A stretch of 62,157 nt of DNA, filler included, from Catajapyx aquilonaris (GCA_000934665.2; 3 parts of 3 records of this genome joined end to end with filler, not necessarily neighbours in it); one strand, 5' to 3'; shown: positions 11,910-58,489, counted from the whole stretch's first letter. Notes: a model not told the origin generated them from the letters alone. Program-made: numbers and translations.

Positions 11910-14900
11910 CTAATATTTTGATTGGATGTTTTCTGGCACACTGGGCAGCTCACTGGGCTTCTCACGTGTGTGGATTCGAATGTGAGCATTTAGACCCCCT
12001 CCCTGCGAAAACCCTTTCTGACACACACAGCATTTAAATGGTTTCTCCCCAGTGTGTGTCCGCATGTGAACATTTAGAGTCCCTGCCAGCCGAAACTTTT
12101 TCTGACACACATGGCATTGAAATGGTTTCTCACCTGCATGTATTCCCATGTGAGCTTTTAGATTACCTGCCTGCGAAAACTTTCTATGACACATCTGACA
12201 ACTGAAGGGTTTCTCACCTGAATGTATTTGGATGTGAGTTTTTAGATTACCTGCCTGCGAAAACTTTCTGTGGCACACATAACAACTGAAGGGTTTCTCA
12301 CCTGTGTGTGTTCGCATGTGAATTTCCAAAAACCTTGCATGAATAAACTTCTTCTGGCAAACGTCACATTCAAGCACCGTTTCAGTCCCTCGTGCCTCCC
12401 TGCAACTTCTCACTTGAGCCTGCTTCTTTCCAATTCTACCGCTTGTTTTCACTCTTGCTTCCTAAAAGATAAATTACATGCCATCCCTTACTCACTTACT
12501 GTTTCACAAAATGGAACAGGCCACTAGACCAAGTTATCTTCAATAGCATATGCACAACCAATCACAGATTCTCCAAGGCATCATATCCAAGCAACTAATA
12601 AATTATAGGGAACCACTTTAAATAAATGAAAACCATAGGGATCATAACATCATATCACTTGCCAGGGGCCTGACATCGAATCAATTTGAGCCTTGATGAA
12701 TTATTCACACTCTGAAACCAGTAGGCTTCTGCACAATCATAAGTTTCATACATAAATCTTTATTAACTGTAAGGAGTTGAGAAAATTCTGCCTTATGTAT
12801 AGTACCATATAGTACCACTGTTATAACACTGTTAATCGCCGTCCACCATCTACGGTCAAAGGACATCCTCGTAGAAGGCACTTCTGGAAATTTCAACTTT
12901 TTAAAAGTTCCCATAGAAATGACCTCAACAATATGAGTAAACAGTGTCAATGAAAGGGCACTGTTTATTCACACTGTTGTGTGAGGGGGCCAATCGGATG
13001 CGTTGCAGTAACAATATGTGGCGGACCAATCAGAGGCCATGATCAAATACTAAGAGTAGGATTTTAATATAATAGAAGAAGATGGTATGCAAGTTAATTT
13101 TCCATAATTAGCAATGTTCCAAACAAAGGGTTGCCAACACAGCAGCATTCCAATCAAAGTGTTTCTAACATTATTTTTCACATGTGCATGTATACAGCAT
13201 GTGTATGATTAGCATTGGGCATGTTCATCGTGATTATCCAAATGCCTAATTAACATATATGACCATTGACAATCTGGGTAATAAAAGTAAGTGCCAATTA
13301 ATTCTCACGAACATTAACTATGGGAACATTTCAAAGGCCATAAATTTTTACACACCCATAGGACCATTTTTTCGATACCCAGTGACAGAATCGAGGGGAA
13401 AGGGTGTGGATGGAAGGTGACAGGAGAGTTGTTGTTAACTCATCGGCAGTCAGCTGACAACTGACTGAACCGAGGGGTTACTCCTGGTTACTCCCCCCAT
13501 TGCGCATGCTCGGAACGGGGGTCAATAGGAGGAATCATGGTAAAAATACGTCGCAGTAACAATAGACAGGGGCCAATCGGAACGTGCCAGTAACAACAAT
13601 TTGCAGATGACCAATCAGAGGGCTTAGGCATAGTCTGAAAGCATTTTAATATACTAGACTTGATAGAATCATTAACATTTGATTATGCTGTACCTTGTTC
13701 TGTGGAGTGCGGTGTTCCCTCATCTGATGGCGTTCCAGGTGCATCTTTGTTGCAAATGGTTTCTTGCAGTCATCGCAGAAGAGGAGATCGGCCAGATTGA
13801 CAGAGGTGATCTTTGTCTGAGGAAGCAAAGAAAAACACAGCTTCACATCCAAGAATCCTGTTAATCCATTTTGGTCATTTTAGTTGAAAGGTATTACATG
13901 AGATGGCAAAATCTTAGCACGAAGATGATTTCCTCTGCGTGAAAGACATGGATTATAGCCTATTCCTGCATTATGATTATCACCAACCCCTCACACGTAG
14001 TGATGGTGAAGCAGATATGTCATATCATTAACATACCATCCTGTCAGTCCAACTTTCGAGTACTGGTACTTATGAAAGCATTAAGCAGAGAAAGCAGAAC
14101 TTTTGTTGAAATTTAATTACACCGTATTCCCTGTTATCCGGGTGTGGATTATCCATGTTTCGGATTATCCGTGAATCACCAAAAAATAAAACTAGAAATA
14201 ACAGTACGAAAAATTTATCAATATGTCTCGCAACCAAAGATTTAACAGGCCTTTTTCTAGAGACAAACTAAACATCTCCAGTAAGTTTTACTGGGTCAAT
14301 ATAACATTCTTGGAAAGCTGGTCCCGGAATACCTCCATAAGGTCCTGCGCATTTTTATTACTCTGAATATACCAGACTCATTTTCACCTCACCTTGGCTA
14401 TAGCATACCATTATTTGGCCCCTCTCTGGGAAACTATGGTCCTTTCAATTACCTAGTATCATTTCCCATTCAAGGAAGGCACTCTATACTGAAGGGGAGT
14501 GATTTTCCCACCTGTCACTGACACAAGTGCTCTGCTCAGTGTATCTACATTCTACAACTCTTAATGAACTACATTATACCTCCTGTGTGCATGTTGCAGT
14601 TCATTCTACAGCAGGTGTTGGTCATATTCACCCAATCAGCCCGAAGACATGTCTGGCCATGCCTTCCAGCCTGCAGGGACAGTTCTGACACCTCCTGCAG
14701 GAAGAACTTCAATATGATGCTTGGTAGGCTACATTACTACACAGCAACTTTTGGGACAACCTTCACCTGTTCATCTCCTCCATTTGCATCACCGTCCTCT
14801 TCTGTGAATCGAACAGTGACCACTGGTGGACCCCGATCCTCCTCTTCCACCTCCCTTATGGCCCTGTCCCACTTGGAGTGCGTGAAGCTGTGCCCCAGGA

Positions 14901-18804: not shown

Positions 18805-20662
18805 TAGTCCAGTCATTCAGTGCTCGAAATGGGTTCTACCTGGAAAGTTTTGGAGAAGTTCTGATTTTTGGGTCCAGTATGTTTTTCGAGGTGCTGATTA
18901 CGAATTTCCACTTTGCCACCTCGAAAGATTTCGGGAAATATCTTAAAAATGCAAAAAACAACAAAAAAATGGGACTTTTGTTTTGTTTTTGCCCATAACG
19001 CGAAACCTATGAACTTTTCGAGACAAATCATTGTATTCAAATATACACTAGACGTAATTTCCTACAACCTACCTCTGTATGTTTTTTCTGTCAGACGAAT
19101 AGTTAAGGCGCAAGCGCCCATTGAAATACTAGCGTCCAATCCCAAGATGGCGCCTTGAGGGACAATCGACGCTATCCTCATTTTCCCTCTTTTCCATCCA
19201 TTCCTCTCAACCTTGTCACTCTGTAGGGGCGAGTCATTCAGTTCAGTTCGGCCAGGGGCGGATCCAGGGGGGGGGGGGGGTCANNNNNNNNNNNNNNNNN
19301 NNNNNNNNNNNNNNNNNNNNNNNNNNNNNNNNNNNNNNNNNNNNNNNNNNNNNNNNNNNNNNNNNNNNNNNNNNNNNNNNNNNNNNNNNNNNNNNNNNNN
19401 NNNNNNNNNNNNNNNNNNNNNNNNNNNNNNNNNNNNNNNNNNNNNNNNNNNNNNNNNNNNNNNNNNNNNNNNNNNNNNNNNNNNNNNNNNNNNNNNNNNN
19501 NCCCCCCCCCCCCCAAAAAAAAAAGAAAGTCTGGATCCGTCCCTGAGTTCGGCTGTATAATGTCTCTTCGGGTATGTTTTATTTGTGACAGTAGGCCTAC
19601 ATTGGAAGGTGGACGTGAAGTGACAGTACTAGTGAAACAAAAAGGTTGGAAGACAGTTAGTGAAGCAAGTAAGCAGAGGAAGGATGGAAAGGGCGTTAAT
19701 CTGAAGGGGAAGACATCAATTATTATTGAAGTTCACGAAAAATGTCGAAAGCAGTACATTAATGAAAAATTAATTGCTGCCTATGCGAAGAGGGCTCACC
19801 AGGGTGGTCAGACGCAACAATTACCCTCGTCGGTACCTACCTTTTCTTTCAAAACGAATTGTTTTTTGTGTGGATTGGTGATAACACCACAGTTTATATA
19901 GGAACAAAAACGACTTCCTGCATCGAAACGCAACCTTGTGTATAGTGTTAGGCAGTTAAAAGTGAGAGAAAAGGTTGTACAACTCGCTGAAAGACGTAAT
20001 GATGAGTATGGCCGAGCCATACTTGTACGTGTTGGACCAGAGTATGAAAAAAAAATGTACTGTCGCCCACAGGCTGAAAAAAAGAAAGCACGTGGTCCGT
20101 TTGGCAATGACATTGAGAAAGCAATGCAAAATATATTCACTTTTCTCGAAAATAGAAGTGTCGCCCCGAATAATGTTGTAAGTGACATTGGTGAAAATGA
20201 TCACTCACAACGTGATAACACTATACACAAGGTTGCGTTTCGATGCAGGAAGTCGTTTTTGTTCCTATATAAACTATGGTGTTATCACCAATCCACACAA
20301 AAAACAATTCGTTTTGAAAGAAAAGGTAGGTACCGACGAGGGTAATTGTTGCGTCTGACCACCCTGGTGAGCCCTCTTCGCATAGACAGCAATTAATTTT
20401 TCATTAATGTACTGCTTTCGACATTTTTCGTGAACTTCAATAATAATTGATGTCTTCCCCTTCAGATTAACGCCCTTTCCATCCTTCCTCTGCTTACTTG
20501 CTTCACTAAATGTCTTCCAACCTTTTTGTTTCACTAGTACTGTCACTTCACGTCCACCTTCCAATGTAGGCCTACTGTCACAAATAAAACATACCCGAAG
20601 AGACATTATACAGCCGAACTCAGGGACGGATCCAGACTTTCTTTTTTTTTGGGGGGGGGGGG
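18805..20662 (+). mobile_element. Degenerate DNA transposon 5' portion (Academ-like transposase N-terminus) with a fold-back duplication
   Basis: ORF 19560-19901 and its continuation read CFIC...VHEKCRKQY...FSFKTNCFLCG...ERRNDEY. From memory this resembles the N-terminal region of Academ-type transposases; the superfamily assignment is an inference. There is a possible TAG terminus at 18805 and an internal stop. Confidence 0.5.
19253..19545. mobile_element. hAT-type MITE spanning an N-gap
   Basis: TIRs caggggcggatccag / ctggatccgtccctg with an 8-bp TSD agttcggc at 19245-19252 and 19546-19553. Confidence 0.85.
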
Positions 20663-20762
20663 NNNNNNNNNNNNNNNNNNNNNNNNNNNNNNNNNNNNNN
20701 NNNNNNTTAATTAATTAANNNNNNNNNNNNNNNNNNNNNNNNNNNNNNNNNNNNNNNNNNNN
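20663..20762. other. Assembly gap with artificial ttaattaattaa spacer (also at 41421-41520)
   Basis: A 100-nt N run contains a 12-mer with stops in all six frames, and the same arrangement occurs at both gaps. Confidence 0.9.
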
Positions 20763-21338
20763 TGTTTACAAATTAGTGAGTGACGCGGACGACCCAGCGA
20801 CGGATCTCTTCTGCCTGCGCACTCACTCATTCGATTTGTAAACAGTGGCAACAATGGAAGCAGTCTCCATGGGCTGATGTTTGAATTGGCCCGCCGGACA
20901 GGATTGCCAGGTAACGCACTACAACATAAGCAGCTTAGGCCGAATTTGTCAATAGCTGTTCGGACAAAAAAGTTGGACCACCCTGTATACAAATCATCAA
21001 CAAAACCAGGGCTGCCAATGGCATCCTTCGACATCCACATCACTAATGATGTGCGTTACACAATGCTAGTGACTACATTGAAGGACTCTGAAAGTTTAAA
21101 GCTGCCATGAATTTCCAGTCCCAAGTAATTAAATAGTTGCCACTATTTTATTTACAGTCCTCGTATTTTTCTATGAGTACTTTCCTATGCAGCAGCAATT
21201 TGTTTACTAAGGAATATTTTTGGAGAATAGAAAGATTCTGCTATATACAGGTTTCGTTATAATATTAACAGTGTCAATGGGAATTAATGAATGGCATGCC
21301 ATTACTTTACAGAAGCAAAAGAAATTACGACAGCTTAC

Positions 21339-24300
21339 CTGAAGACCCTGATCATTGCGACCTCCCATGCTGTCAAAATAGCGTATAGACTTGTCTCTGA
21401 AGTCTACCACAGCCAGACACCAGTGCATGCCAAGGTGCACTGGTATAATGATGAGGCTATAAGAAAAGATGTCGATCCTTCTTGTCCATCTTTTCAGGGC
21501 TGCTTGGCCTCCAGTCAACATCTTGGGGTAGAAGAAGGTACTGAAGGCATATGCTTTGGGCAAGCCATCAGTGCCTCCCCTTTCAGCCACCATGCTCATG
21601 TAGAAGTTAATCACCTCGTCATTAAGCCAAGACAGCCCTTTCAGTGTCACCAGGTCTTTGCGAAGGATTTTCATCTTGAACCCTTCTGATAGCACCTCCA
21701 TACCTGGCCCTGGCTTCAGTGCCCACGCAATCTTTTCTTTCATTTCAGGAGTGAGTTCTGGTAGTGTTGTTTTTGGGGCAGCAATTTCTCGTAGTTCTTC
21801 CTGAACCTGGGCTTCAACTTCCTTCTTGCGTTCATAGTCATCAAGATCCAGGAAAAACATCTGAGTTTCAAGGCGATCTTCGAGATTTCTTTTTGGAATA
21901 GCCCTTCCTGCACGGGCCTTGGCAAAATACCTTTCTTCCTCCATCTTTCGGATGAGTTCACGCTCATGACTGCTGTATCTTTCCCTCACCTTCTCTAACC
22001 AGTTTCGACTTGCCTCCTTTGTCAGTATATATGTCTGTCGAGGTGACAATATTTGCCTGGCTTTTGCTGTTGTTGCTTCTCCTTGACTGTCTGAGTCCGT
22101 TGAAGCGCTACGAGAATCTAAAGTGAGCCAAGATAATCCAATAATATATAACATGGAAACATACCATGAATGTAAAATTTGAAACAACTAGGTGCGTTGA
22201 TAGCAATAGGTACAGGTAGTCCACAATTTGAACACCAGAATGTTGGCTAAAAATAATCTCCAAAACATACCAATGTTAGGTAAAGATGGTGACGAGAGTG
22301 AAGAGGATGTAGCAGGATCATCGTCTTCTATTATAATCACTTCCTTCTCAGCGGCACAATCCTCCTGTTTTGTCTCCTTCCCAATGGGCTCTTCTATCCC
22401 TGACGTCTTCCCACCACTCTTCTCCAGAGAATCTTCTTTGGGGCTAGTCAGAACCCTGATCCTATGCAGAGCTCCATTCAACAGGCTTGTGGAACCAGCT
22501 CTGCTCCCACTGCTCACAGATATAGTACCTGAGGGTCCCAGTTCAGGGGATGCACCAACTGGCTTCAAAATATTGTCCATCCCATTGAGTGACGCTCTTG
22601 TGTGCTGCTGGAGCAGCTGGTGGTAGCGCTTTTTCTCCTCCAGCTGGTAGCACTGTAATATCAATTGTATCACATCAAAATTGCCACAAGTAGATTTTAG
22701 AAAGTGTAGATGTTAATGTTCAACCCATTCTTAAAGATTGCCGATTCTGCACTGCTCCTTAACCCTTTGAGGCCTATGGTTTTGATTGATTGATTGATTG
22801 ATTGTAAAATGCTAGGAAAAAATTCATCTACAGGGTGTCCCAAAAATAAAACTTTTTAGAATCGTTTGGCTCTCAGAAAGTTGATAGGCCTAACAAGTTT
22901 ACTCCGTCACTATACATTGTTATTATGGTTACGTTATATTACCACAACACTGTGCTATGATAAACTCCCAAGGGTCCAGACTTTACGGGACACCCAGTAC
23001 TCAGGGCGCATGTTTACATAAACGATCGGGTGGGAGCAAAGTGACCTTGGCTTATACGACTCAACTTGGAACAGGGGTGAATCTGGGGGTGCTATGGTAG
23101 TCACCATCCAAGAGCTGGCAGGAGCATATTGAACCATGCTTGGAACTGCAGAGTTCGCCTTCTCTATATGCACATCCTAGAGGACCAAATTCATAAATGC
23201 TCAGGACATCATAATATGATATACGTACCCATCAAAGGGTTAAGGAAGGGCGGCGAGGAAAGAGAGGAGAGGCAGGCATGCGGGAGGGAGGGGAGTATGA
23301 TGCGGATAATTTTAGGATGAGCATCATTAACAACAAGGTCTACACCGCAGGCCTAGAAAAAAGCGAGTGAAGCGAGGGGTTTTCTAGGCCTGAGCCACAG
23401 AAAAATGTGAGCAAAGCAAGAGTTTTTCTAGTAGTGACTTTAAAAATTTAAATTAATTTAATTACATTTAAAGTTCATTGCACTTTTTCTTTTTTTTCCC
23501 TCTAACACCCTGTAGATGATTTTTTTTCAGCATTTTACATTCAAAAGGACCATGAGTTAAAATGATAAATACTGGAACATACTGTTTTTAATTAATATCA
23601 CTCCTACTACAACTTTTGGCACGGCGACAAAATTTTTAAATTAGTACTAACCTCATGCACAGTAAACTCCTTGCTCTTCCTTTGTGAAAAAAACTTGCTG
23701 TGTACACTTGCTAGGTCAGGTTTTTTTGTTGGCTGTGGCTTTCTGAAGAAAACCCCCTCCCTAGGCGTGACACTTGCAGAAGCCAGCACTGGAAGAAAAA
23801 AAATGGCAGTAAGTGCCACAAATAACATATCATAAGACAACATTCCACATTTGCGTAATTTCATAACAAATAATGCAACAATCACCATCCACTATCTCTC
23901 TGGATATGATTGCAATTTGGTGAGGCCTCTTTGCAGCGAGGTAAGTAACTTGATGCATGAGGCACATGCATCTGGAAAGATTCCAGTGGACAAGAAGTTA
24001 TATTGGATGAGATGTTTCTCAGTCAGCACCAACCTTGACTGTAGGCAGTCAGTGGTCCAGTGCCATTAGCTTCGATGCGGTGACCATTGCTGAAACTGTA
24101 CTGATGCCTGAGAGGGATAAGTGGCTTTCTTTGAATCTTGGGTAATGAAGTGTTTTTCTTCTCAAACAAGTACTGAACTTCATTCTGTAAACGATAGAAA
24201 AAGTTACATTTCTGCACTTCAATACTCAAAATAGCAGGCTTATGCAGTTATCAAACCTGGGGTTTGTAGGTATCAGCACTGACAATTTCAATAATGTTAT

Positions 24301-42209: not shown

Positions 42210-45200
42210 TTATGAGTGGTTCTTAGAAACATTCAAAGTGATGCAACCAGCAGACACTGACCTGCACCAAGAGATGACTCTCTGAGCCTCTCTAATACCA
42301 GCTTCAATGGCTCCATGTGTGGTTGAGAAGAAACAATGGTGAGTGGCTTCCCCTGCAAATAGCACTAACGGCTGTCCTGCTTCCCCAGACTCGCCCTTGA
42401 ACAACGGTTGAGCCAGTTGACGAGCCCTAGCTTCAGAGCTCAAACCTCTATGACTGTAAGAACCCTTGAAAAGTGGGTTACATGCCCAAGTGGATCGAAG
42501 CATCTCATATGGTCTACTTGGTAAATCTTCACCAAGGTAGTTTTTGAGCAGTTTCCAGCAGCAGTCAATAACTTCTTCATCACTAGCCTTTTCCATGGAT
42601 TTGGCAGCATTTCCAGTAACCCAGGCACATAAGACCTTGGGCTGGTCCCTTACGGCACAAAAGCTAAATATTTCTCTCCACCACTCCTTGTCTGGATCAC
42701 GCTCACCATCATCCAGGTCTAGCAAAGTGAACCCAAAGCAATCTTCATCCCACCATTGCTCTTCAAATCGGAGAAAGATCTTGTCCACAGTCCCAAACTG
42801 CAAACCCTACAAGAATGGAAATGAATGTTAATAAAGAATAACAATCCAAAGAAGAAGGAAGGGGAGAAAGTTGCTGGATTAGCAGCATTAAAACTCTAGT
42901 CTAGAGTAGGACACAAGGATTAGTAGTTCTCCCTTTCCTTTTCTGCATGCTGCTGACTTATTTACATTGCCAGGGGTGGAAAATAATCAATCAACTCTTT
43001 CTGCCCCTCTGGATCACCCACTTGGACAAAGGAATACGCCATATAGTGGACAAACGAGATGCTACATTACAATTAACTTATGCCTTAAATGTTTCTACAT
43101 ATGATCAACTGGTTTTATGTACTTTATATGTTTTACACAGTGGTCCCCAACCTTTTTATCGCCCCGGACCGGTCAACGTTTGATAATTTTACCACGGCCC
43201 GCTGGGGGGGGGGGGGGNNNNNNNNNNNGGGGGGGGGGGGGTGTATAGTTTATTTTTGATTTAATAATTCCGGTTCCATCTAGGGGTATAGTGTTGGAAA
43301 TACCCTGCCAAGGCCAGAAATACCGTACCACGGCCCCAGATCAGACGATATATCGATAAATGTAGAAAAAAAAAGGAATGGAAATAATTGGGCGGCCCGG
43401 TACCATTTGATCCACGGACCGGTACCGGTCCGCGGCCCGGGGGTTGGGGACCACTGTTTTACAGTATATCAATCATCAGAAAGCTAAATCAAACAAATTC
43501 CCATAAAGTTACTTTTGAGAAAGACAAAAATCCACCCAAGATGATGAAGAGCAATATTCCTTCATGAAAACAAAGCTTTACTCCCAATTTCCTGAACAAG
43601 AGAGGGGGGACAACGACACGACCTGCAAGTGGCAAAATATCATGCATGGATATATTTTGTCACTAGCAGGAAGATTAAAAACACCTACCCAGGGAAAGCA
43701 GATAATACCTGTAACCCAACATGCTTCATGCTTAAAATTCAGGTTGCATCAGCATCAATAAAAACCTAATTTACTGTTACACATAAAGGTGAGGTGACAG
43801 CAGGGTGACAGGTACAATACAAGTGAAAATAAGCATTTACAAAAAAAAAAAAAAAACTGATATGGATGACGTGATGTATATTCTGAAACATGTGTTGTAT
43901 TGTATTAAAATATGGAGAACAGCATGCTCCCCACCCCCCAACATGCACACAGAGGCATACACAATACACACCTGGATAACTTCCATTTTGGACAGTGGCA
44001 TAGGTGGAATGAATAATTCTGCTGCCTGATTTTTAAGCACCCCCAGTGAAACAGTGACAACTACATGATCTGCAGAGTACGAGCTTCCATCTTTGCAATG
44101 CACAGCCACTGGGTCTGAACCACTCTTTCCCCAGTCTATTTGCACAACTTCCTTCCCCAGCAGCACATGATTCTTCACAAATTCTTGCTGCGGTTTAATC
44201 AGCAGATCAATCAGGCCTGAATACCCTTGTCGCCAACTGACCAACGGATTCCCCTCACACTCCTTATACTCGCAAGATCCAATCCCTGATGCCATCTGCA
44301 GGTCCTCTGCTCCTTCCACTGAACTCTGGAAGCGGCGAAGAAACTGAAGCAATCCGTGCTGAATCTTGGGATCCTCATGCACCGGATCATGCTTCTGAAG
44401 TCTCCAAAATCTGTTGAAAAAGAGGGAAAGTACTTATTTGGTGTAAGTGACCCTCCGTACCCCCGCACAGCAAGTCCCGAATTTCGCGGTATTTTCCCCG
44501 CTGGTGACGTAACCAATTGCAAAACGCCATCATCTGGCAACCCCGACCTCGCCCCAACTCTATCTGGCCACCTTGAGCTGAAGTGAACTAGTGAAGGACA
44601 TTTCCTAGAATAGCACTTCCAAGGCAGGCAACCAGGCAAGATGGAAGTCAGCAGGTACGCAATCTCTTTTCGTAAAGGCAGCCTGCAATTTCGGGCCGCA
44701 GTCATTAATCGGGACAGAGAGAGTCAGATTCTTGGCCTCAAAACAAGAAGATCATGGATTAATGGCGGGCTTCTCTTCGCCCCTAGTTCCTTTGTAAACA
44801 TGCATCATTCTGGGGTAACTAAGGAAAATGGCCTCCAGTTCTAAACACTGGATATTTTGCATGAGATAACAGTCGCGAGTTGACAGCATTATCGGACTAC
44901 AGGTTGCATTCAGGCTAACTGGCATGATTTTATGTGGGTCCCCATTTACGGCAGAAGAGTATGGCCCAAAAGTCATTTCAAAACTAACTTATGAGATATG
45001 GCAATCAGACCTTTTGGAAGCCAACGTAAATATACTGCCAAACACACTGCTGACAATGACAGTAGGTCATTTGCTTTAACGTCCTTGGGTCAAGAGAAAA
45101 TGCTCAAGCCTCATTCTCATGAGTGCAATAAACCAGGAAAGGATTAAATTAATAATGTAAATTTGTGACATTTGAAATGTGCTCCAAATATAATTGGAAC

Positions 45201-48200
45201 CATATTTTAATGTTTTGAGCAAGAGTAGATCATACCCAGTTTGTAGAGGTGCATATTTTTAAATAATAATGCTGACACCTAATAAAGTTGATGTGCGTGC
45301 ATTAAAGCCCTTGCATGGTAATACGCCACTTGAAGGTGTGTCACGTTGCGTAACCATTAACCCCTTCGCTACCAGATAGGCCCGAACCACAGATTTTCTT
45401 CTCATTTTTGCTATATTTTTATTCCCTTTCCATTGCTTTCTCCACGACCCTTAAAAACATGCTGGCAACTCTTTTTTGGGTTGCAACACAGGTGTCCGGA
45501 ACCGCTAATTGACTAATATATCTACATACTTTTTCCCCATGTCCTGCAAGCAATTGGATTGTGTTAGAGTGGAGATTTACCCCCACATTGTGTGTGCCCC
45601 CACCCTGTCGTAACTGACAGTGAGTGACTTGGTGAGAAATAATTGTCAGCAGTACCCCCTACCATCCCCCCTAGGCCTATCATGCCTCTGTGCTCATCCC
45701 AATGGAATGATGCCATACATTACCCTGTTCCCATGGAGTGAAGTGATGTATACTCCTAGAGAGTGCCACCTACCCCCATTCCCCAAAGCAGAATTACACC
45801 CTAGCATATCTAAAATGCTCTAATTTACCACTTAAATTGCTTGTTACAGGGTCGGAACAAGGCACATGGTGCGCAACGCCAAAACAGCATGGGATGAACC
45901 CAGGTGTCAGGACTTGGCCAAATCCTGGGCTGATAAGGCAGAAGAGAAGCAGATTTATATTGGGCACTTGTTTACTAGTCCTGGTTTCGATATCCTGAAG
46001 TGTGTCATACGGGAACTGGATGCAGTTCCAAGGGACAGAGTCCTGATCAACGGATATCGGGACCTAGGGGCATATTTAGGGGCACATCAATGCATCCCTC
46101 AGATCTACGAAAATGGCATCCGCCCTTCGTTTGGACCAACCGCAGGTATATTATGGGACAGAAGAAAGGTACCACTGTGCCACTTTATAAGTGCACTCAT
46201 AAAAATGAAGCGCCTTGATATTGTTTCTATGATAGAAGATCATATGCCTACATTCTTGGAAGCTCCTGTCAACCACAGCGTTGAACAGTTGATACCCATA
46301 CCCATTGAGTCTTGCGACACCTTGGAGGAGTTTGCTGCACAGTTCCGTTACACACGCCGTGCACCAATTATCAATTCACTTTCTAATCAACTACCAATAC
46401 AAGAGCAACCCAGGAGAACCACAGTGAGACCTGATATGGTTGTCTATTTAACCTATGGTGAAGATGGCATTGAAGATGCACGTGAAATAGCAAGAATCAT
46501 ACGCCAGCCACGTGAAGATGGTCTTCGAATTGGTGTTCTGTTAATGGATGAACACAGAACTGAGTTTGAAACAGATCCAAAGGCCATTCTGGAAGAATTC
46601 TACACCCAAGTGCGATTCACCCTTCCCATAATTACGCCTGGTTATTTGGACTCTCTATCATCCCCTGATGTCACGTCAGCAGCCACCAACCTTGACGTGA
46701 AACTGGTACCACATGCTTACAGACTCATGCTGGGCCAATATGACCAAAACTGGTACAAGAATAAAAATGTTAGGTGCATAGTGCCTGACAGATTTTCACA
46801 GGTAGTGCCACAGAGGACGGACTTTAACAGGCCACTTTTTTCTGCATGGTTCTCAACTTCAGAGTTAGAAACGCTACTTGACAAGTTTTGCCAGCTCATC
46901 AAGTAGGAACAGAGTGAAACCGTTCACGCCTTTATTCACATCTTGTATAAATGCAGACGTATCACCACTGTTGAAGTTCTTGCATACAACCGGATATGTG
47001 GATATACAGTAGACTGAGGGTGAATTCAAGTGTCAGTTTCTTTTTCTTTTTTTAAAAATCCAGCCTTCATGCTGTGAAATTAAAACCATCTGGTTACTTT
47101 TATAACCAAGTTGTTGATCACCCATAGTAGTACATGAGTGAGGCCTTTTTTTTGTGCTTCTCTAAATCGTATTTACTGCTGTTTATGCATACCAAAACAA
47201 GGAACATATGTATTTTCCCCATGGCTACATTTTTTGAGCTTGTGAAAATTAAAGGAGGTCCCTTTTCGGTTTTTGGGTGGGTTGTGGTTCAAGCCCTTGT
47301 ACAAATTCTTTTGGGATCAGTGCACACCTACATAAAATTATTAAAATCTGTCTAATGAACTCCAAATTAAGCATGAATACGTCCATTAATGGAAGTGTGG
47401 ATTTTCCATACATTTTGGTTGATTGAAAGTAAAACCTGCTCAGGATAAATTTGATTAGAATGGAATGACTCATGTAGACTTGTCTTAAAGTACGTGCAAT
47501 GCAATGCAAAAATGTAAATATGGTTTGTCTGTCATTGCATAAATGTTTTTGCTTTTTGATGCATCACTGAAGTTTTCCTGCATGAAGTGTTACTAATTAG
47601 TAGGAAAATTTTATATTGAATGCATATTGTATAGTGACAGCTACAACTTAACAACAAACAAGAAGTTACACCATACAAATAAAGTAAATAAATGTTACTG
47701 ATTTTTGTTTGTGCATCTTTGTTAAAAACTGATATAAAGACTGTGCGAAATGCAGTGAAATATAAAGCTAAATTCCTTGAGTGTAACATTTTTCTACACT
47801 AGCAAAGTAGATGTTCCAGATGCATTTTGTCAAGAAGAGAAGCAAGCTGACAAAGTGGTTGGGCAACATCTCGTTCTGTCTGTAGGAGGCAGGCAGGTCT
47901 CCAGTGGTCTATTGTGGGGCCATGAGACTGGTCTGTTCAGCTATTGCAGACAATGCGTTCTTGCATCTAAGTATGTGATACATATTATGTAACATCCCCT
48001 TGTCAGTTATATCTACTACAGACCATTTCATAGTTTATTTCAAACCAATCTTAACAAATTATGACTAATGACAGGAATCAGATAGTAGTCTACGGGTACA
48101 GAGGCAATGATTATATGACAATACATGTTCCCCATTTAGCAGTTAATTTTTTAGGAGGCCCATAATAATTAAATAGTCATCAGTATCATCACACTACTAA

Positions 48201-50166
48201 TCAACAATGTCAGTTTGTCTGAGATGAGACATCATGCAGATCACCTGAATAGGTTGACTCAAATGGAATTTAAACTATTTTTTATCCACACCTTAACAAT
48301 GCGATTGGGGTTGGGCGGGCGGGGGGCCTCCCGACAATTGGCAACGTTGCGTCGCAAACAATCGGGTGCCTTGATACTGCTGCCAGCCAACTTCGAATGC
48401 CTTCACGGTTGCTTGATGAAGTGTCGTTCTTTGGGTTAACGGACTGCAGCAACCATCATGGCTTTCATATTTCCCACCTCCTTCATTAATACTGTTGTCC
48501 TAGCACTTGTCTGATCGGTTCGCGTGGCAGGGGTAAGAAGACGCCCTTTGTTGCGCTCCCCCGGCAACTGATTGTTTGGGACCCGTAGCCAACATGTTTG
48601 GAGCCCACCACGCCTTCCCAACCCCGCCGCGTCGCTAGGTGCGGATAAACAATAGACTTTCCCTCAAATGTCTTGAAAAACTTGTAGTCAATCTTGTATA
48701 TGTTGGGTTTTTCTCACTACAAGTAGTATGAGTGTTGAAAACGTGTGGCTAACCCAGCCCCCAGACACTTCTATCCCAGCCCAATAGAAAAAGCTGTGCC
48801 TTTAACCCTTCCCGAATTGGCGCTAGTATATCTGCAATGGAATCCTGTTGTGGAACTCGCGGCAGCCGTAGTGACCAGCAACCCTGATGGTACAGTGCCG
48901 TGCACAATAGCATATAACAAGTGTAAACAACGACTTTGGCGTCACCTGGCAACTGGGCGTGTTCGGACATCGGCATGTGGAGAGGGCTTAGTGCTCTTTC
49001 TGTCGTTGCCACTGTTTACAGGTAGCGATTGATGCTGGGCGACCTATAGCGAAGGGTGTGTGCATGCTTACCATTGCATGGCATCGGAATAAGCGGGCTG
49101 AGGGGATATTATTTTGAGAAGGCGCTTCGTTATTATCACACTATCGTCACTGTCTTATTCCCACGATGATGGAGTTATCATCAATCGCTACCTGTAAACA
49201 GTGGCAACGACAGAAAGAGCACTAAGCACTCTCCACATGCCGATGTCCGAACACGCCCAGTTGCCAGGTAACGCCAAAGTCGTTGTTTACACTTGTTATG
49301 TGCTATTGTGCACGGCACTGTACAACTATGCATCTTAGTGTATCGCTATTGGTACCTAGGTGTTAATGCATAGTTGTACCATCAGGGTCGCTATGGCTGC
49401 AGCGAGTTCCACAGTGTGATTCCATTGCAGATATCATAGCGCCAATTCAGGAAGGGTTAACGGCAAGAAAGATGGTGGCAAGTGTCCCGACCTATTCTTC
49501 TAACACCGTGGGCTAACCGCTGGCCAGCTCTGTACCGGGTTGCACAGTGTAAATATTGCCCAAGTTTCTTTGTCCAACTCTACTCTCTGAATCCTTCAAA
49601 CCAATTCATTCTTCATAAAGAGTAAAATAGAATGGGACATACGAGTAAGGTATGCTCATTACTCACTCCTTGTCATAGAATTCCCCAAGTGACCAATCCC
49701 CATCCATTGGTTGCTTCTTGGCGGTGGCCTCTATCTTAGCAGCAGTCAACTCAAACCTCTGTATCTCTTCCTCGGTCAGCCTGCGTCCATCCGAGGCAAC
49801 GTACTCAATCCCTCCAAGCCCACCATTGAGTGGGTCAACTGTGTCAGTGTCCAGCAGCCCAGCCTCCACTCCCATTTGGAACACAGTGTTCCCTTCTTCC
49901 CCATGGACCCACTGGGCACCCAGCTCCACCAGTCCATCAGCAAACTTGGCAGTGTGCACCCTCCCACCCAGTCTCTCGGAAGCCTCCAACACTGTCACTT
50001 CTCTGAACCCATTGCGATGCAGGTGGAGGCTGCAGGCCAGGCCGGACACTCCAGCCCCCACGATCACTACCCTTCCAGGCATATCCAGGCCACGATTTTG
50101 GACAGAACAAACCAATCTGCTCAGGTTCCTCGTCAGAAGTGGAGGCAGAATGAGCTGGAGCCGCAT
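42210..50166 (-). CDS. Flavin amine oxidase, spermine/N1-acetylpolyamine oxidase family; exons 49667-50166 (alternative start 50082), 43972-44410, 42210-42806
   Basis: FAD-binding VVIVGAGVSGL, EASERLGGRV, ELGAQWVHG, ADHVVVTVSLGVLK, FGTVDKIFL, GSYS and LFAGEATH...STTHGAIEAG.REA are present. Splice phases are consistent. Confidence 0.93.
43138..43456. mobile_element. hAT/Charlie-type MITE in intron 2 of the polyamine oxidase
   Basis: TIRs cagtggtccccaacc / ggttggggaccactg, with ttttaca duplicated on both flanks. Confidence 0.8.
44488..44515 (+). promoter_or_regulatory. Candidate promoter elements of the nested gene: kappaB-like site, CRE-like tgacgtaa and ccaat
   Basis: ggtattttcccc (reverse complement GGGGAAAATACC) is followed by tgacgtaa and ccaat, about 130-150 bp upstream of ATG 44641. 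This is a motif match only. Confidence 0.35.
44641..46906 (+). CDS. Nested antisense gene: death domain + SEFIR/TIR-like adaptor (Act1/CIKS-like), ~356 aa; exons 44641-44654 and 45850-46906
   Basis: A 346-aa open frame joins in frame to ATGGAAGTCAGCAG|gtacgc via ttgttacag|G. The N-terminal part (YRDLGAYLG..PTAGIL..FISALIKMKRLDIV) resembles MyD88-type death domains. The C-terminal part (VYLTYGED, PIITPGY, YRLM..Y.QN..KNKNVRCIVP) resembles the Act1 SEFIR boxes. Confidence 0.75.
48806..49456. mobile_element. piggyBac-type MITE with long inverted arms
   Basis: Termini are TTAA|cccttcc.gaattggcgcta ... tagcgccaattc.ggaaggg|TTAA, and the ~230-bp arms are reverse-complementary. Confidence 0.85.
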
Positions 50167-50548
50167 ACTTGGAAAAGGCACTCTGGATTTTCCAGTGGGT
50201 CCAATTTGGCCGGCATATTCTGGCCAATGAGGGCCGAACCTTGGCAGAATGTAGGAAAATTCGGAGTGCCTTTTCCGTACATCAGCAATGCAAATAAGGA
50301 CGACCGGCTGGGTAGCGGTTATTTCAAATCGCTTTTGGTGAGTGGCTATCTATTGCAGGTCTCCCTGTACTACGTTGAACAAGAAACAGCTGTGCAAGAA
50401 AACACAAGCAGCTATGCTCCTGGCGTAATCGCAGACAATGCCGTGTCTGCTGCAATTAGCTGCACTGAATAGATGAGGATCGCAATACGCCACGATTCAT
50501 GACCTCTCTTTGACCGTTTCTCAACTGGGACTGAAAACGGCTTGGAGG

Positions 50549-53500
50549 ATGCAGCAGCTGCGTCGTACATTGCATCCGGAGTACCTGCGTCTTGTCCTGA
50601 ACACGACCAGAAGGTTTCTGGCGTCGTCTGCTTGTGCTGGAGGAAGAGATGATGGCGGGTGGCAATGGGGCAGTGGCAGGAGGAGTCACGTTGTGACCGT
50701 CGCAGCAGGAGTTGGGCTCGGGGTGGGATGCGGTCTGGCCCTGCATGCCATCTTACAGGGCAGGTGACTTCATTGTTAACACCCTGTTTGTTGCAATGGC
50801 ATGAACTGCTATGGAAATGAGAGTTTCAGTAAATATGCCCTGGCATACCGTACTTTGCGCTTAACATGACATAAATGTCGCCTCTCAGGGTTCCCTACAG
50901 TAATGTTAGGCGGTTAAAATTTTCACGAGTACCATGTCAAGTGGCGTGAACATACAACACATTAAAAGTTGAAAAACTGCATTTTCAACTGTGCACCTAT
51001 TCACAGGTACAAAAACACCTGTTTTTATTTGGAGATTTATAGGAATTTTCAATGTTCGCCAATTTTAATATTAGAGATCTCAAGTTATTCATAAAACACC
51101 ATTGCATTCTACTGTGCGTTCACCAAAGCTATCAGCCTAACACTTGATTGAATCAACAAACAGTTTGTAGCCTGTAAAAATGATACCAAAATAACAGATC
51201 TGATTCTCACCATGCCATTCTAAACATTAATAATTTTAAAATAATCATGTCTATGGCATGTGACAGATAAAAGACATCCCTTCTGTAAAAACCATATTTT
51301 GATCTTTCAATTGAGATAATATTTTGCAACTTTTTGTCACTATTCACCCTGTATAATGGTACTGATTTTACGAAAAAGCATGAACTACTAAAAGTGAAGG
51401 CGGCTAGTTCACTAGTGCGAGTTGGAAAATGTATTAGACACATGGCATAAAAACAGTGTTACAAATTTAAAACAATGAACATATTCTTACCTTCCTGTAG
51501 CTTGTGACCAGAGCTCCATAAAATTCAGACACAGTAATATCATAAAATTTATGTAGCCTTAATGTCACTAAATTTTTCCACCCTGTCATGGGAAAATATT
51601 ACATTCAAATGATAGCTAACAAACATTGGATAATTCATTTGAGTGTACCACTAACACTAGTTTGGGTAGCTCTGTAAATATATTGCCTTTCTGTACATTT
51701 ATCAGATGCTGAAGCAGCTCAAATTCACCCTCAGCTGGCAGGGAATCCACGTTCGGACCTCCCTTCATACTCACTCTCAGAAGTAAGCCGTCATAGCTCC
51801 ATACCTGACCGTATATGGGTCACCTACAGGCACGGAGTATATGATGTCACTGACTTTGTCCCAGAGCACCCTGGTGGAGACAAGATAATGATGGGTGCTG
51901 GTGGGTCTGTAGAACCCTTCTGGGCTCTCTATGCTGTTCACCAAACACCAGAAACTCTCACTATGCTGGAAGGGTTCAGGATAGGCAACCTGAAGGAAGA
52001 TGACGTGGTAATAGACACAACAGATCCGTATTCAAATGACCCAAAGAGACACCCAGCACTGATTGCTAGATCCGAGAAGCCATACAATGCAGAGCCACCA
52101 CTCGAACTGCTCACGGAAAGCTTCACAACTCCCAAGTTAGTCTGCTGCATTTGCTCAGCTTCCCTCTTCCAATTTCTCGCAGCTTATATCAATATACTGG
52201 AGTGTGCACTGCAAGGTTAACAGATTTTTACAACGTACAACATACCTATTTTATATCTAACCCAATATAGGCCTACTCACTAATGATTTTTAGACAACAC
52301 TGAACTTGTATCTCGGAGCAGTAACAAAATATCGATTTCAACTCCAGTGAATCCAAAACTGCCAAAGAAACCACAGTGAAGGGCAGTTTATTTTAAAATC
52401 TACAGTCTGTACTATATTACAAAGTAAAAATAGGCCTTTAAAAAATCCCCGTATATGGGAAGTTGTGTGTGTAATTTTTAGACCTACTTTTTAATACCCT
52501 TCCTCTAGATTGAGGGTCTTTCTGGCCTTATGCTAACATTTAATTTTACACCCCACATAGTGAGTTATTCTACGTGCGCAACCATCTCCCTGTACCTGAA
52601 GTTGATGCTGCTGATTACACCCTGGAGATTTCTGGATTGGGAGTCCGCTCGAAGACGTTCACTCTCAATCAGTTGAAGAAACTTCCCAAGCACACAATCA
52701 CTGCTACCATCCAATGTGCCGGAAATCGTCGCTCAGAAATGAACAAGGTGGCCCAGGTGAAGGGCCTTGAGTGGGGTGCTGCTGCCTTGGGTACTGCCAC
52801 TTGGGGGGGATGCCGTCTGGTGGATGTTCTCAAGATGGCAGGACTGAGCAGAACTCCAGAGGAGGCTAACCATGTGCAATTTGAAGGGTTGGATCTGGAT
52901 CCATCAGGAAAACCATATGGAGCATCAGTAACCATCCAGAGAGCACTAGATCCATCCAATGATGTGATTTTAGCATATGAAATGAATGGAGAGCCACTCC
53001 CCAGGGATCACGGATTTCCAGTCAGGGCTGTGGTACCTGGAGTGGTTGGAGCCAGGAATGTCAAATGGTTATGTACGTGCCTCAAGTGTAGACCATGTTA
53101 TCATTTGCTTTCCCTCTAGTATTTTGAAAAGTATTCAGTGAGAAAATTTATATTGAAAGATGCTGATTTGGAAATCAAAATATACCTTGCAAAGCAGTCT
53201 TAGTGAACTATTTAACAAATCACTATACATGTTCATGCATTGACCTAGGAATCAATGTAATCTGTAAGCTCTAGTCTTGCCCCAAGGGTAAGTTACCTCT
53301 GCTGCATAGACTAGGGCTTTGCTTTGCTCTTATCAGCACTTGTCTCAGCATTGGGTTATTGTTGTGTTTGTGCTGATCCAACCAATAACTGCTGAAGGCC
53401 TAAAATTGTGGGCCGACTTCTTCTGTTCTACCTGTCAAACTTTCATAGAAAACAAAAGTTGGTGAGCATTCAGTGGGTACAGGAATTATTAGAAATATCA

Positions 53501-54383
53501 GACCATCGTTACAGTTCTGCTGTGAACACAAGGTATAATTATTGAAACCTAATAGCATGTTTTGTTTGGGTTAGCTCGAGTGGTGATATCTTCAGAGGAG
53601 AGTGACTCCCATTGGCAGCAAGGAGACTACAAGGGATTTAATCCATCAGTCAACTGGGACACAGTGGACTTCTCCAAGTCACCAGCCATTCAAGAACTTC
53701 CGGTAGTGTCAGCCATATGTGACCCTGTGTCTGGGGCCACTCTCCCAAGAGATAAAGATGGGATGGTACCTGTGAGAGGCTATGCTTGGAGTGGTGGGGG
53801 GCAGGAGATTATTAGGGTTGACCTCAGTTCCGACCAAGGAAAGACCTGGGTGTCTGCAAACTTGGAGATTGACAAAGTAACTTCCCAGAAGAAGCCACCA
53901 TATCACTGGGCCTGGACATTGTGGACAGCAAGGATTCCTGTCCCACCCAATGCTAAGGAGGTAATTTTGTGATTACTCTCTCTCTCTCTCATTGGTTTTT
54001 TCTCACATTAATTTCATACTTGCTGTGCATTGGTGAGTCAGAGGTATCGCTCTACATCTAATAGTAGAGGTGCATGAACTTTAAGTCTTGTGCTTCATTA
54101 AAGGTAGACCATGGAACTAGGATTTATCCCAGTCATTAGCTGTAAGCCACTGGCTGTAGCCCTCCATAAAATCGAGACATAACATAAGCATGAAATTTCT
54201 AGCTCACTAGTAATAGTCACTCAATCATTGAAAATGATTTCTTTGTTTGTCAAGGTGGAGATATGGTGCAAAGCAACAGATTCATCTTACAATGCACAGC
54301 CAGAGTCCTTTGAAAACATCTGGAACCTGAGAGGTGTCCTTGGAAATGCATACCATCGAATCAAAGTGAAGTTCATGTCCTGA
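50549..54383 (+). CDS. SUOX: Mitochondrial sulfite oxidase; exons ~50549-50760, 51706-52135, 52561-53072, 53575-53960, 54255-54383
   Basis: The protein has a presequence plus TM segment, a cytochrome b5 domain (VYDVTDFVPEHPGG) and FYVRNH. It also has the Moco cysteine motif QCAGNRR, DHGFPVR.VVPG.VGARNVKW, RGYAWSGGG and IWNLRGVLGNAYHR. Confidence 0.95.
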
Positions 54384-54547: not shown

Positions 54548-56456
54548 TTAGTTTATTGCTGTCACTGGTGTGAGGGTGATGAGAGTATTGCTGCTGTCAG
54601 CCAAATCACTGAGTGACACACGCCCTTGCTGTCTGATGAATTTAGCCACCTTTTCAAGCTCCTCCTGAGATATGTAGATGAACTTTCCTCGGTCATCAAT
54701 CACACCTGTGAAGACAGAAAAGCATTTTGCTTACCAGAAGTTTGTTTGAAGTGATCAGAGCATTGTGATGAAACCTTTCTATTAATGACTCCCTCCCTCC
54801 AACCTCAGTTTTCCCCCCTTTTGACAGTCTTGCACCATTCTTCAATCTTATGCTGACTGAACATCAACGGTATTTCAAATGGTGACATTTTGATGGAAAA
54901 TATGAGATAATGAATAAACAGTGTTCTCTAGCTGTGCATTCCATATCTGCATAAACATTCAACTGCTCACTATCTCAAATGTGGGTGTCCGCTTACAGTT
55001 ACATGTTATTAGTTCAGCATGTTCATAAAGTGAAGGAGTAACCACTGCATGACTAGTTAAGGCCCAAGGAAACTTATATCATATTATTGCTGTTATTTGA
55101 CCTTTCCCAGGTTTCCACATCCCATTCTGCATATTCCCCATGAAATACGCTAAGTAAATCCTTGCCAACCAACATATCTCTGGGAATCCCGCGATATTTG
55201 CATGAAGTCTAATTAGTTATTTCAGAGTGTAGAACAAGACTCACCTGTTAATCTCCCTTCAGCTATGAGAAGCTGCAACCTATCAATTGCTTCTTGTGTC
55301 TTGAGCTTGAACCTTGCAGCTAAATCTTCAAGTAGCACTACCTTGTTACACTTGATGTAGTCAACAAATGCTTCAAGTAGATTTTCTTCTTCAGTGCCTT
55401 CCACTCCCTCTTCCCCCTGGCCCTCCTCTTCTACTACAAATGCTTCTCTCAGCTTCAGGTATTCCTCCTCATCCCTCTTTCTCTTCTCCTCTCTCTCCTT
55501 GGCTTCCTCCTCTGCCTTCAGCGCCTCTTCCAGCTTAGCAGCCTCATCTCTTTGCTGTCTGTCCCTGTCCTCCCGCTCTCGCCTCTTTTTCCTTTGCTCT
55601 CTCTCCTGCTCCTCTGCCTCTCTGTTTGCCTTCTTTTCTGCTTTTGCTTCTAGTTTAGCCTGCTTCTTGGCTCCTACTCGTGATTCCTTTAATAATGGAG
55701 TTGTACTGTCAGGGGAGCTCGCTTTCTCCTGCTGCTGGGTTGCATCATCTGAGTCATCTTCAGCGTGTCTGGTAGCTTCATTACGGCGAGCTTGGCGCAG
55801 ACGTGCTCTGGCACCTTGGCCTCCTCCTGCATGCCTAGGAGCTGCTCTGGGACGAGGATCATCACCTGCACCTGCTGCCGCCGCCTGAAGTTGTTCAGCA
55901 GTAGGAGGACCACGGCGCTTTGGGACTGAAAGTTAATGTGCACATTACCAAGTCAGCTTAAAATGCATTACATTAAAAACTAGTTCAGGGTCATTGTCAT
56001 TTTTAAACACATGGCCAAAGGTAGATGCACTAATCTTATAGGTGCCTCACCATAAGGTTGTAAAAGAACCTTTCGATTATTGATATTGGTTCCAACTGAG
56101 ATAAATTTTAGTCCCGGGGCCTAATACGGTCCCCAATCGAGGCATCTGCATTTGAAAACCATACCCTTGACATTTTCCCTAACTTCATCTGAGTTTGTAG
56201 CATCATTCATTAAACTTTTTCCAGGGGTTACCAAACATCGGCTGCACAACTGAAGCAAAGGCTTTTAAATGGTTTAGCATCAACTTTGAGGGATTCAATG
56301 AGCACATTCAAGTCACATTGTCCATCAGTATGAAGAGCAAGTGAATGCATATCATCCCAACTCACTTCTGTGCTTTTTGCCAAGGACGAACCAGGCCAGT
56401 CCGACCAGCAGAGCCAGAGAGGCCACGATCAGACCCCAGAGTACCACGTCGTCCAT
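54548..56456 (-). CDS. DDRGK1: DDRGK domain-containing protein 1 (UFMylation adaptor); exons 56366-56456, 55245-55925, 54548-54705
   Basis: N-terminal TM helix, a charged coiled coil, and the PCI-like end [15 protein letters not shown]...FIRQQGRVS. Confidence 0.95.
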
Positions 56457-56729: not shown

Positions 56730-58489
56730 ATGGCGGCGTTGTGGTGTCGACTGTTTGCTTTTCTCCTGCCCTTGCTTTGCGCCCGGTCTGTCTTGGGGCT
56801 GTATTTCCACATCGGAGAGACGGAGAGGAAATGCTTCATCGAGGAGATACCGGATGAAACCATGGTCATTGGTACGAAGGGCTTGAGCTGGCCTTCAGCG
56901 CCGGTTTCCAAAAGACACGTCACTTTTATCGCTGCAGACATGTTCATGTTCATTGAACTCGTATTGAGACTAATCCATTTTCATATTAGGGATCATGCAC
57001 CTTGCTGGTAAAATGAGGGCATGCAATGACGTTAATTATGATTTAGTATGTTTGCAGCTTAGAAAAGTAGCTGTATGTGGCAGGTAGAATGTTTCAAGGG
57101 AGAGGAGGCAGACCTGCCCTTAGCTTGTTGCATATATTATTGCTTGGAAGATTCAGTTCCTCTTCTGGCTAAATATTAGCGAAAATTATCAAAAGACTGT
57201 GTTTCTGAATGTGACGATCAATTTATGTGAATCTAAGGGCCCTTCATAATTAACAATAGCTTGATCAGCAGGTCTGTGTTCTCAGATGTTAAGAAAACAA
57301 TTTATATTCACATTTATGGATGTAAAGAGTAAGGTAGTCACTATGCCTTCCTACTTTTTAGGAAACTACAAGGTTCAACTTTATGAACCACGAACTGGTG
57401 GCTTCATGCCGTCAAGCCCTGGAATCGGCATGCACGTGGAAGTCAAAGATCCTGACGATAAGGTGATCCTTTCCAAAGTGTACAGCTCAGAGGGACGCTT
57501 TACGTTCACATCCCATGCTCCTGGGGAACATGTCATCTGCCTGTATTCCAACAGCACCAAATGGTTCAGCGGAACTCAGCTTGTAAGTATGGAAAGCACG
57601 ATGCTGTAACTTGTGTACTTAAAGCATTTTCTTTTTTAATTGCAGCGAGTACATCTTGATATCCAAGTGGGTGAGCATGCTGTGGATTATGCTAACGTTG
57701 CACAGAAGGAAAAGCTGAGTGACCTCCAGCTGAGAGTCAGGCAGCTGTTGGATCAAGTGGAGCAGGTCACCAAGGAGCAGAACTATCAGAGGGTGTGTGC
57801 CAAAATGTCCTTAATCCTTTAAGGATGGGTCCCTTTTGTTATGTTCTTGTTTCGTTGGGGTTGAGTAATCAAAAAATTCACCGAACCCTTGGTAGGTAAT
57901 ATACATTTTTAAACGCGCATACACATTAAGACATCACAACAAAAACATTGAATACAGGCAACTCCTGACTTACATCTGGACTTGGATTTAAAATAAAATT
58001 TTATGGCATTTACAGAACAAACTGGCGAAGTATAAGATGCCCTCATTTACTAGAAATCGTACATTAAATTAATGGCAACTCTAAGCTGCCTGCCTAGACT
58101 CATTCCATTTACATATCAGACATTTTAACCCCTTGTGGGGAATATACTATACTGTATTCCCATTTGCAGTGCCCCTCAATTTAATATCATGGTGACTCGA
58201 GCATCAATGTACGAGGTACAGTACAGCGTACTGTATGAGTTGCAGAAAATCTACTTAAAACATGTTTTATGTCTGATCAATATCTTAGTTTCATAGGACA
58301 GTAGTTGTTACTGTATATCCTTTTTCTCTGAACTTGTAGTACCGAGAAGAACGATTCAGGCTGACAAGTGAAAGCACCAACCAGCGAGTCCTGTGGTGGT
58401 CTGTGGCCCAGACAGGCATCCTTCTCATCATGGGCTACTGGCAGATGCGCCATCTCAAGAGTTTCTTTGAGGCTAAGAAGCTTGTGTAA
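56730..58489 (+). CDS. TMED9: p24/emp24 cargo receptor, alpha subfamily (TMED9/TMED4, Drosophila eclair); exons 56730-56871, 57362-57582, 57646-57792, 58340-58489
   Basis: Signal peptide, [21 protein letters not shown], a GOLD domain, a coiled coil, a TM segment and the C-terminus FFEAKKLV*. Confidence 0.95.

Follow-up and report, generated by a model that had tools for sequence, protein, structure and literature searches.

The window analysed here is a stretch of 62,157 nucleotides of DNA from Catajapyx aquilonaris (GCA_000934665.2), in which three parts of three genome records are joined end to end with filler. On its plus strand it carries a gene for a putative adaptor protein with an N-terminal death domain (DD) and a C-terminal domain that most probably belongs to the SEFIR type, the combination found in Act1/CIKS adaptors of interleukin-17 (IL-17) signalling. 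The gene is nested antisense in a 5.2-kb intron of a flavin amine oxidase gene. The coordinates of all features are collected in Table 1.

The longest open reading frame (ORF) of the window runs from stop to stop over positions 45836..46906 (+) and comprises 356 codons. The chance of 356 stop-free codons is about 4e-8, given a stop-codon frequency of 0.047 in the window. Depending on the start, the predicted product has 351-356 amino acids. In a two-exon model, an ATG-bearing exon (44641..44654, donor CAG/GTACG) is spliced to position 45850 (acceptor ...TTGTTACAG/G) with the frame kept, resulting in 1071 nt or 356 amino acids with a single terminal stop. Exon 1 contributes only five residues (MEVSR), and no family-like coding piece was found upstream among 51 frame pieces of 44434..45900. 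Translation could equally well begin at an in-frame ATG at 45866, and the domain content is identical under both models. The two-exon ORF of about 356 amino acids that had been proposed in the sequence-only reading was recovered with an intact frame and an in-frame junction, but its first exon has neither homology nor transcript support.

A contig of 1902 nt from a public run (X1), the contigs of which sum to only 32 Mb, was identical to 45864..47765, without differences and at a depth of 27.9. This contig is compatible with a transcript of the coding sequence (CDS) plus 3' untranslated region (UTR), without proving one. Among the public-run contigs, nothing was found on exon 1, the intron proper or the gene flanks, and no RNA run was listed. 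Lack of transcript evidence had been named beforehand as a finding that would speak against the gene; an exact 1.9-kb contig lies over the CDS, but the kind of run is unrecorded and exon 1 is uncovered. Three unrelated contigs of low depth, loose at both ends, touched the short repeat at 45356..45396 in the putative intron.

Homologues were searched with phmmer in a collection of 1.84 billion representative sequences using the window protein as query. At E<=1e-3, 71 proteins with lengths of 88-480 amino acids were obtained (best 1.2e-25); 38 of them matched at E<=1e-10, where identity was 24-37%. Names were available for 18 of 30 clusters looked up, and all were insect or crustacean; the ostracod Darwinula was one more. 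The insect members belong to Orthoptera (Gryllus, Anabrus, Schistocerca), Ephemeroptera (Ephemera, Neocloeon), Blattodea (Blattella), Phasmatodea (Bacillus, Timema), Odonata (Hetaerina), Hemiptera (Cacopsylla, Lycorma, Cimex), Hymenoptera (Trichogramma) and Lepidoptera (Eumeta). The crustacean members are Meganyctiphanes, Chionoecetes, Armadillidium, Artemia and Darwinula. A word-index homologue search with the window protein as query returned nothing, and with the family alignment as query it returned P0052 only. Likewise, phmmer of the window protein alone against the PDB gave only noise (E about 0.8).

A family hidden Markov model (HMM) was built without the window protein. It scored 50.5 bits on residues 1-150 and 161.9 bits on residues 185-351, and the best of 400 shuffled sequences (200 per half) reached 1.1 bits. 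A quick within-family tree was calculated from the 45 proteins of at least 300 amino acids, the 27 shorter rows being excluded. In it, the window protein came out at the base of the insect clade on a long, weakly supported branch (Shimodaira-Hasegawa-like approximate likelihood ratio test, SH-aLRT, 81), apart from malacostracans and branchiopods, and its end branch was the third-longest of the 45. The tree broadly tracks taxonomy, as is expected for a single fast-evolving orthologue. The protein belongs to a conserved, fast-evolving pancrustacean family.

In the databases, members of this family carry labels such as "uncharacterized", "hypothetical" and "Death domain-containing", and one Artemia sinica entry (P0090, AEJ08192) was deposited as 'Myd88 protein'. 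In the latter, Pfam finds Death only and no TIR. According to PMC3470552 (legend of Fig. 4), the A. sinica protein was entered as AsMyD88 in the tree of LvMyD88. Its name is probably a mis-annotation.

The N-terminal half of the window protein is a Death domain. Pfam Death was found in 41 of the 72 family sequences at E<=10 (best 5.5e-13), the window protein excepted, and at E<=0.01 in 33 of 48 scanned. In the PDB, the family profile matched the death domains of p75NTR (1.1e-8), MyD88 (1.8e-8), IRAK3 (6.7e-8) and Pelle (1e-4), and likewise those of RIPK1, ankyrin and FADD. The six-helix bundle of the Death-domain superfamily (DD subfamily) is present in the predicted model, and DD profiles match it. 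The nearest fold of residues 34-142 was the MyD88 DD filament subunit 6i3n_M (Z 11.3, root-mean-square deviation (rmsd) 1.9 Å, 98 of 103 residues), and a second MyD88 DD structure, 3mop_A, gave Z 11.1. The N-terminal death domain recognised by eye from the sequence alone was confirmed by these family-level profile matches and by the predicted fold. The blocks on which it had been based (WxxLA, PTxxLL and LxKxxRxDI) are the columns that align the family profile to the p75NTR and MyD88 death domains.

For the C-terminal half, an AlphaFold (AF2) model was built with the 72-sequence family alignment. Its mean predicted local distance difference test (pLDDT) score was 86.1, with residues 190-351 mostly above 90; a model from the single sequence (pLDDT 37.7) was unusable. 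Structural comparison was done with VIA-align against 48,161 PDB representatives. The best match was the SEFIR domain of human ACT1/TRAF3IP2 (9ot1_E; Z 16.4, rmsd 2.7 Å, 146 residues aligned), followed by the SEFIR domains of IL-17RA (4nux; Z 13.1, 145 residues) and IL-17RB (3vbc; Z 12.4, 131 residues), the TIR domain of SARM1 (Z 12.2, 125 residues) and that of MyD88 (7beq; Z 12.2, 128 residues). The lead of ACT1 over the runner-up IL-17RA was 3.3 in Z, and the top three structures were all SEFIR; TIR domains did not exceed 12.2 in this comparison. In a second VIA-align listing the order of the SEFIR domains was unchanged, with a SPARTA TIR interposed at 13.6.

Comparisons at the level of sequence agreed with this ranking, but weakly. 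Over its C-terminal half, the family profile had TRAF3IP2 as its sole match in the PDB (E 0.006), and TIR chains were absent at E<=10. This alignment spans residues 467-516 of ACT1 and includes I504, F506, I507, M512 and F514, which sit at SEFIR-SEFIR interfaces in the cryo-electron microscopy structure (PMC12828022). In the ESM Atlas, the whole protein scored 0.96 with an arthropod "Death/SEFIR" cluster, 0.94 with a nematode SEFIR cluster, 0.91 with a mollusc SEFIR+Death cluster and 0.88 with MyD88. When the C-terminal part was compared by itself, a mollusc 'Adapter protein CIKS-like' cluster (0.89) was the best of the named ones, which is a lead only. Based on the predicted structure, the C-terminal domain belongs to the STIR superfamily and is most probably a SEFIR domain. 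The earlier preference for SEFIR over a canonical TIR is borne out by the top-ranking structure and the sole C-terminal sequence match in the PDB. Two of the alignments made by eye at that time (PIITPGY with VAISPKY, and YRLM..Y.QN..KN.NVRC with HRMMQIEF..QGSMNFRF) coincide exactly with the region aligned by HMMER to human TRAF3IP2.

In the short linker of about 50 residues between the two domains no U-box was found, and no Pfam family matched there (E<=10). One match to the motif PxExx[acidic] is present (PIESCD). A conserved TRAF6 site was considered and rejected: PxExx[aromatic/acidic] was found in 11 of 72 members, at non-aligned places, and since this frequency is about the chance rate, the site is not regarded as conserved. 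Many homologues share a proline-rich linker motif, approximately (I/L)xPxx(L/V)PxxPxx(L/F) (alignment columns ~340-390), of which the window protein keeps a part (RRAPIINSL). The maximal Kyte-Doolittle mean over 19 residues was 1.16; therefore, no transmembrane segment is indicated.

Table 1. Positions of the adaptor gene, its predicted domains, the host gene and other genes in the window, counted from the first letter of the window
Feature	Position	Strand	Basis or remark
Putative exon 1, unverified	44641..44654	+	ATG plus 14 nt: MEVS and part of R; GT donor at 44655
Putative intron, GT...AG	44655..45849	+	Splice-site motifs; contains short repeat 45356..45396
Main coding exon	45850..46906	+	Stop TAG 46904..46906; whole product 214 bits against family HMM
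Death domain	45950..46276 (P0001 residues 34-142)	+	Predicted fold, family profile, Pfam across family
Linker	46277..46423 (residues 143-191)	+	Mostly low-confidence or disordered; pLDDT <50 at 165-182
Predicted SEFIR-type domain, nearest ACT1/TRAF3IP2 SEFIR	46424..46897 (residues 192-349)	+	VIA-align, family profile
Probable 3' UTR	46907..47765	+	Up to end of covering contig
Flavin amine (polyamine-type) oxidase, host gene	42210..50349	-	Pfam Amino_oxidase on three ORFs: 49663-50349 (profile 1-72), 43837-44433 (178-279), 42210-42806 (279-443)
Oxidase intron holding the adaptor gene	44434..49662		5.2 kb; adaptor gene antisense
7tm_7 chemosensory (gustatory) receptor	9516..10559	-	One long ORF, 347 amino acids, E 6e-11
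C2H2 zinc-finger	11910..12461	-
Inverted ORF pair, first copy	19227..19901	+	PPPPKKKRKSGSVPEFGCIMSLRVCFICDS...; borders run of N
ORF between the inverted pair	19902..20345		No Pfam family found
Inverted ORF pair, second copy	20274..20714	-	Near-identical to first copy; borders run of N
Ulp1/SENP protease	21207..22187	-
Sulfite oxidase	51678..53972	+	Cyt-b5, molybdenum-cofactor (Moco) and dimerisation exons
DDRGK1	55222..55932	-
p24/GOLD cargo receptor	57265..57609	+

The three oxidase ORFs of the host gene match successive parts of the Amino_oxidase profile. The best named matches of a sulfite-oxidase exon were from arthropods (insects, crustaceans and mites), none of them above 70% identity. 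The named homologues of the adaptor and the neighbouring genes both point to an arthropod host, one that lacks a close sequenced relative among the named members. The genes for sulfite oxidase, DDRGK1, the cargo receptor, the protease and the zinc-finger protein are ordinary neighbours. The near-identical ORFs in inverted orientation could be explained by an inverted duplication, by a mobile element or by faulty assembly.

A DD followed by a SEFIR domain is the ancestral layout of Act1/CIKS in non-amniotes and parallels the DD-TIR layout of MyD88 (PMC7190641; PMC11087794). The present combination is not a new fusion. In Caenorhabditis elegans, a complex that acts below the IL-17 receptors unites ACTL-1 with PIK-1/IRAK, MALT-1 and NFKI-1 (PMC7190641). 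The DD-bearing CIKS1 of amphioxus binds IL-17R1, TRAF6, MyD88, Pelle and IRAK4, and removal of its DD abolishes NF-kB/AP-1 activation (PMC11087794). The SEFIR domain of human ACT1 forms a double-stranded helix that is nucleated by IL-17RA SEFIR domains, and its N- and C-terminal extensions bind the IL-17RA SEFEX (PMC12828022). Among arthropods, crustacean female sex hormones (CFSHs) of shrimp and the PTTH of Lygus bind IL-17R-type receptors (PMC11087794). A search by terms found no adaptor named in two papers on crustacean CFSH receptors, and a description of an arthropod CIKS/Act1 was not found in open-access papers and bioRxiv (full text). However, one arthropod cluster carries the automatic name "Death/SEFIR domain-containing protein", so that the resemblance has not gone wholly unseen.

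The window protein resembles C. elegans ACTL-1 and non-amniote CIKS (types T1 and T4 of PMC11087794) in being apparently soluble, with an N-terminal DD and a C-terminal SEFIR-type domain. The nematode SEFIR cluster of the ESM Atlas, with 357 amino acids, is also close to it in size. By analogy, the same partners would be expected, i.e., SEFIR tails of IL-17 receptors and death domains of IRAK/Pelle. It differs from these proteins in that its family is too diverged for Pfam SEFIR, and from the common T1 type also in lacking the extended central stretch that holds a U-box and TRAF sites. The T4 CIKS of hydra likewise lacks most of the U-box/TRAF region (PMC11087794). Human ACT1/TRAF3IP2 is the best structural match of the C-terminal domain, yet identity is only about 10%, and the two proteins are opposite with respect to DD and U-box: human ACT1 has a U-box and TRAF6 sites but no DD.

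Several results weigh against an adaptor of the CIKS kind. A PNAS survey of 2024 (PMC11087794) described CIKS as "entirely absent" in arthropods, a result obtained "even using a sensitive method", and the U-box/TRAF region that defines most CIKS is missing here. The window protein alone gave zero Pfam matches at E<=10. Within the family, Pfam SEFIR (PF08357) was found in one of 72 sequences (E 0.01) and the generic TIR_2 in ten (best 4.1e-6). A smaller profile restricted to the C-terminal part reached TRAF3IP2 only at E 0.1, beside a spurious histone at 0.22. With Foldseek, the two-domain model had no match at E<=1e-3; the TIR domain of TIRAP came first (7.3e-3), narrowly above the SEFIR chains of 9ot1. 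Run X1 is not on record as RNA.

Given these results of Pfam, the C-terminal profile and Foldseek, the assignment to SEFIR is mainly based on the predicted structure. Because TIR_2 hits genuine SEFIR clusters too, it does not discriminate, and the canonical TIR (PF01582) is absent from the families listed for all 72 sequences. Of the checks that accompanied the sequence-only reading, the Pfam comparison upheld Death at the level of the family but yielded nothing for the window protein itself and hardly any SEFIR. Structure prediction gave a confident model with ACT1 SEFIR at the top of VIA-align, but Foldseek gave no match at E<=1e-3.

The survey proposes TLR adaptors as possible substitutes in arthropods, "but it requires verification" (PMC11087794). 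Its Dataset S1 contains 45 CIKS, none of them from an arthropod, and includes arthropod IL-17Rs, e.g., that of Cimex lectularius, a species in which a member of the present family was also found. The same dataset contains an annelid CIKS (Helobdella robusta), yet annelids are called CIKS-free in the text.

The main rival explanation is a divergent MyD88 paralogue with a DD and a degenerate TIR domain, acting in Toll signalling and not below SEFIR receptors; it is considered rather unlikely. The two proteins share the two-module plan and a similar size, and the DD is nearest in fold to that of MyD88 (Z 11.3). In the C-terminal domain, MyD88 TIR still reaches Z 12.2 over 128 residues, but ACT1 SEFIR reaches 16.4 over 146 and the three best structures are all SEFIR. 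The family profile finds MyD88 in the PDB through its DD only, with no TIR chain at E<=10. The more frequent occurrence of TIR_2 than of SEFIR among the members would favour MyD88 if TIR_2 did not match true SEFIR clusters as well, and PF01582 occurs in no member. One further point against a SEFIR adaptor is the use of the A. sinica member as AsMyD88 in a published tree (PMC3470552); this protein itself has only Death in Pfam. Arthropods generally carry a separate canonical DD-TIR MyD88, which counts against a paralogue.

It is distinctly unlikely that the protein is a true DD-SEFIR protein that serves as a brake or decoy, sequestering the death domains of Pelle, Tube or MyD88 or capping SEFIR assemblies without relaying a signal. 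The lack of a U-box and of a conserved TRAF6 site would fit such a function, as would the weakening of CIKS1 output by co-expressed Pelle/IRAK4 in amphioxus and the cross-talk between CIKS and MyD88 (PMC11087794); however, addition of a DD to CIKS strongly raises NF-kB/AP-1 activation in amphioxus and zebrafish (PMC11087794), and ACTL-1 is a positive pathway component in C. elegans (PMC7190641). A non-functional ORF, i.e., a decaying or untranslated copy within an intron, is very improbable: the frame is intact, the family HMM gives high scores to both domains, the model is confident, and the exact contig extends over the CDS and the sequence downstream of it without reaching into the flanks, although the gene is nested antisense in another gene, its exon 1 is unverified and its end branch is among the longest of the tree. 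Equally improbable is an NAD-cleaving enzymatic STIR domain like that of SARM1 or bacterial TIRs. Structures of SARM1 and of bacterial TIR/ThsB were found at Z 10-12, below all three SEFIR structures, and a DD as partner domain points toward scaffold signalling.

The explanation favoured here, and considered somewhat more probable than its alternatives taken together, is that the gene encodes an arthropod counterpart of Act1/CIKS in a minimal DD-SEFIR form such as ACTL-1 of C. elegans and the short CIKS of cnidarians have. It is best classed among the Act1/CIKS proteins of DD-SEFIR layout as a new, highly diverged member from an arthropod, which has the DD and the fold but neither a Pfam SEFIR match nor the U-box/TRAF region. 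Its orthology to CIKS, its partners on the receptor and DD sides and its signalling output are inferred. Analogy with CIKS1 of amphioxus and ACTL-1 of C. elegans makes the links to Tube/Pelle and the competition with MyD88 suggested earlier plausible.

In the proposed mechanism, a cystine-knot-type ligand of the IL-17/CFSH/PTTH kind would gather IL-17R-like receptors, the cytoplasmic SEFIR domains of which would nucleate a head-to-tail SEFIR-SEFIR assembly of the adaptor, as IL-17RA does for ACT1. The clustered death domains could then recruit Pelle/IRAK, Tube and possibly MyD88 or MALT1 into a myddosome-like oligomer, leading to outputs of the NF-kB/AP-1 type. Signalling would proceed through the DD branch and not through the TRAF6-ubiquitin branch of mammalian ACT1; as U-box and conserved TRAF6 site are lacking, the output should depend on the DD branch.

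The existence of a conserved pancrustacean DD-SEFIR protein suggests that CIKS was reported as lost in arthropods because its sequence had diverged too far for profile searches to reach it. Whether the family is the 'lost' arthropod CIKS that relays signals of the crustacean female sex hormone and insect PTTH type from IL-17R-like receptors to DD kinases of the Pelle/Tube type is judged to be evenly balanced. If it is, the published view of arthropods without CIKS would be overturned, and the neuroendocrine axis of sex differentiation and moulting would be tied directly to the death-domain machinery of the Toll pathway. The signalling step below the IL-17R-type receptors for arthropod CFSH (sex differentiation) and PTTH gains a concrete, testable adaptor candidate.

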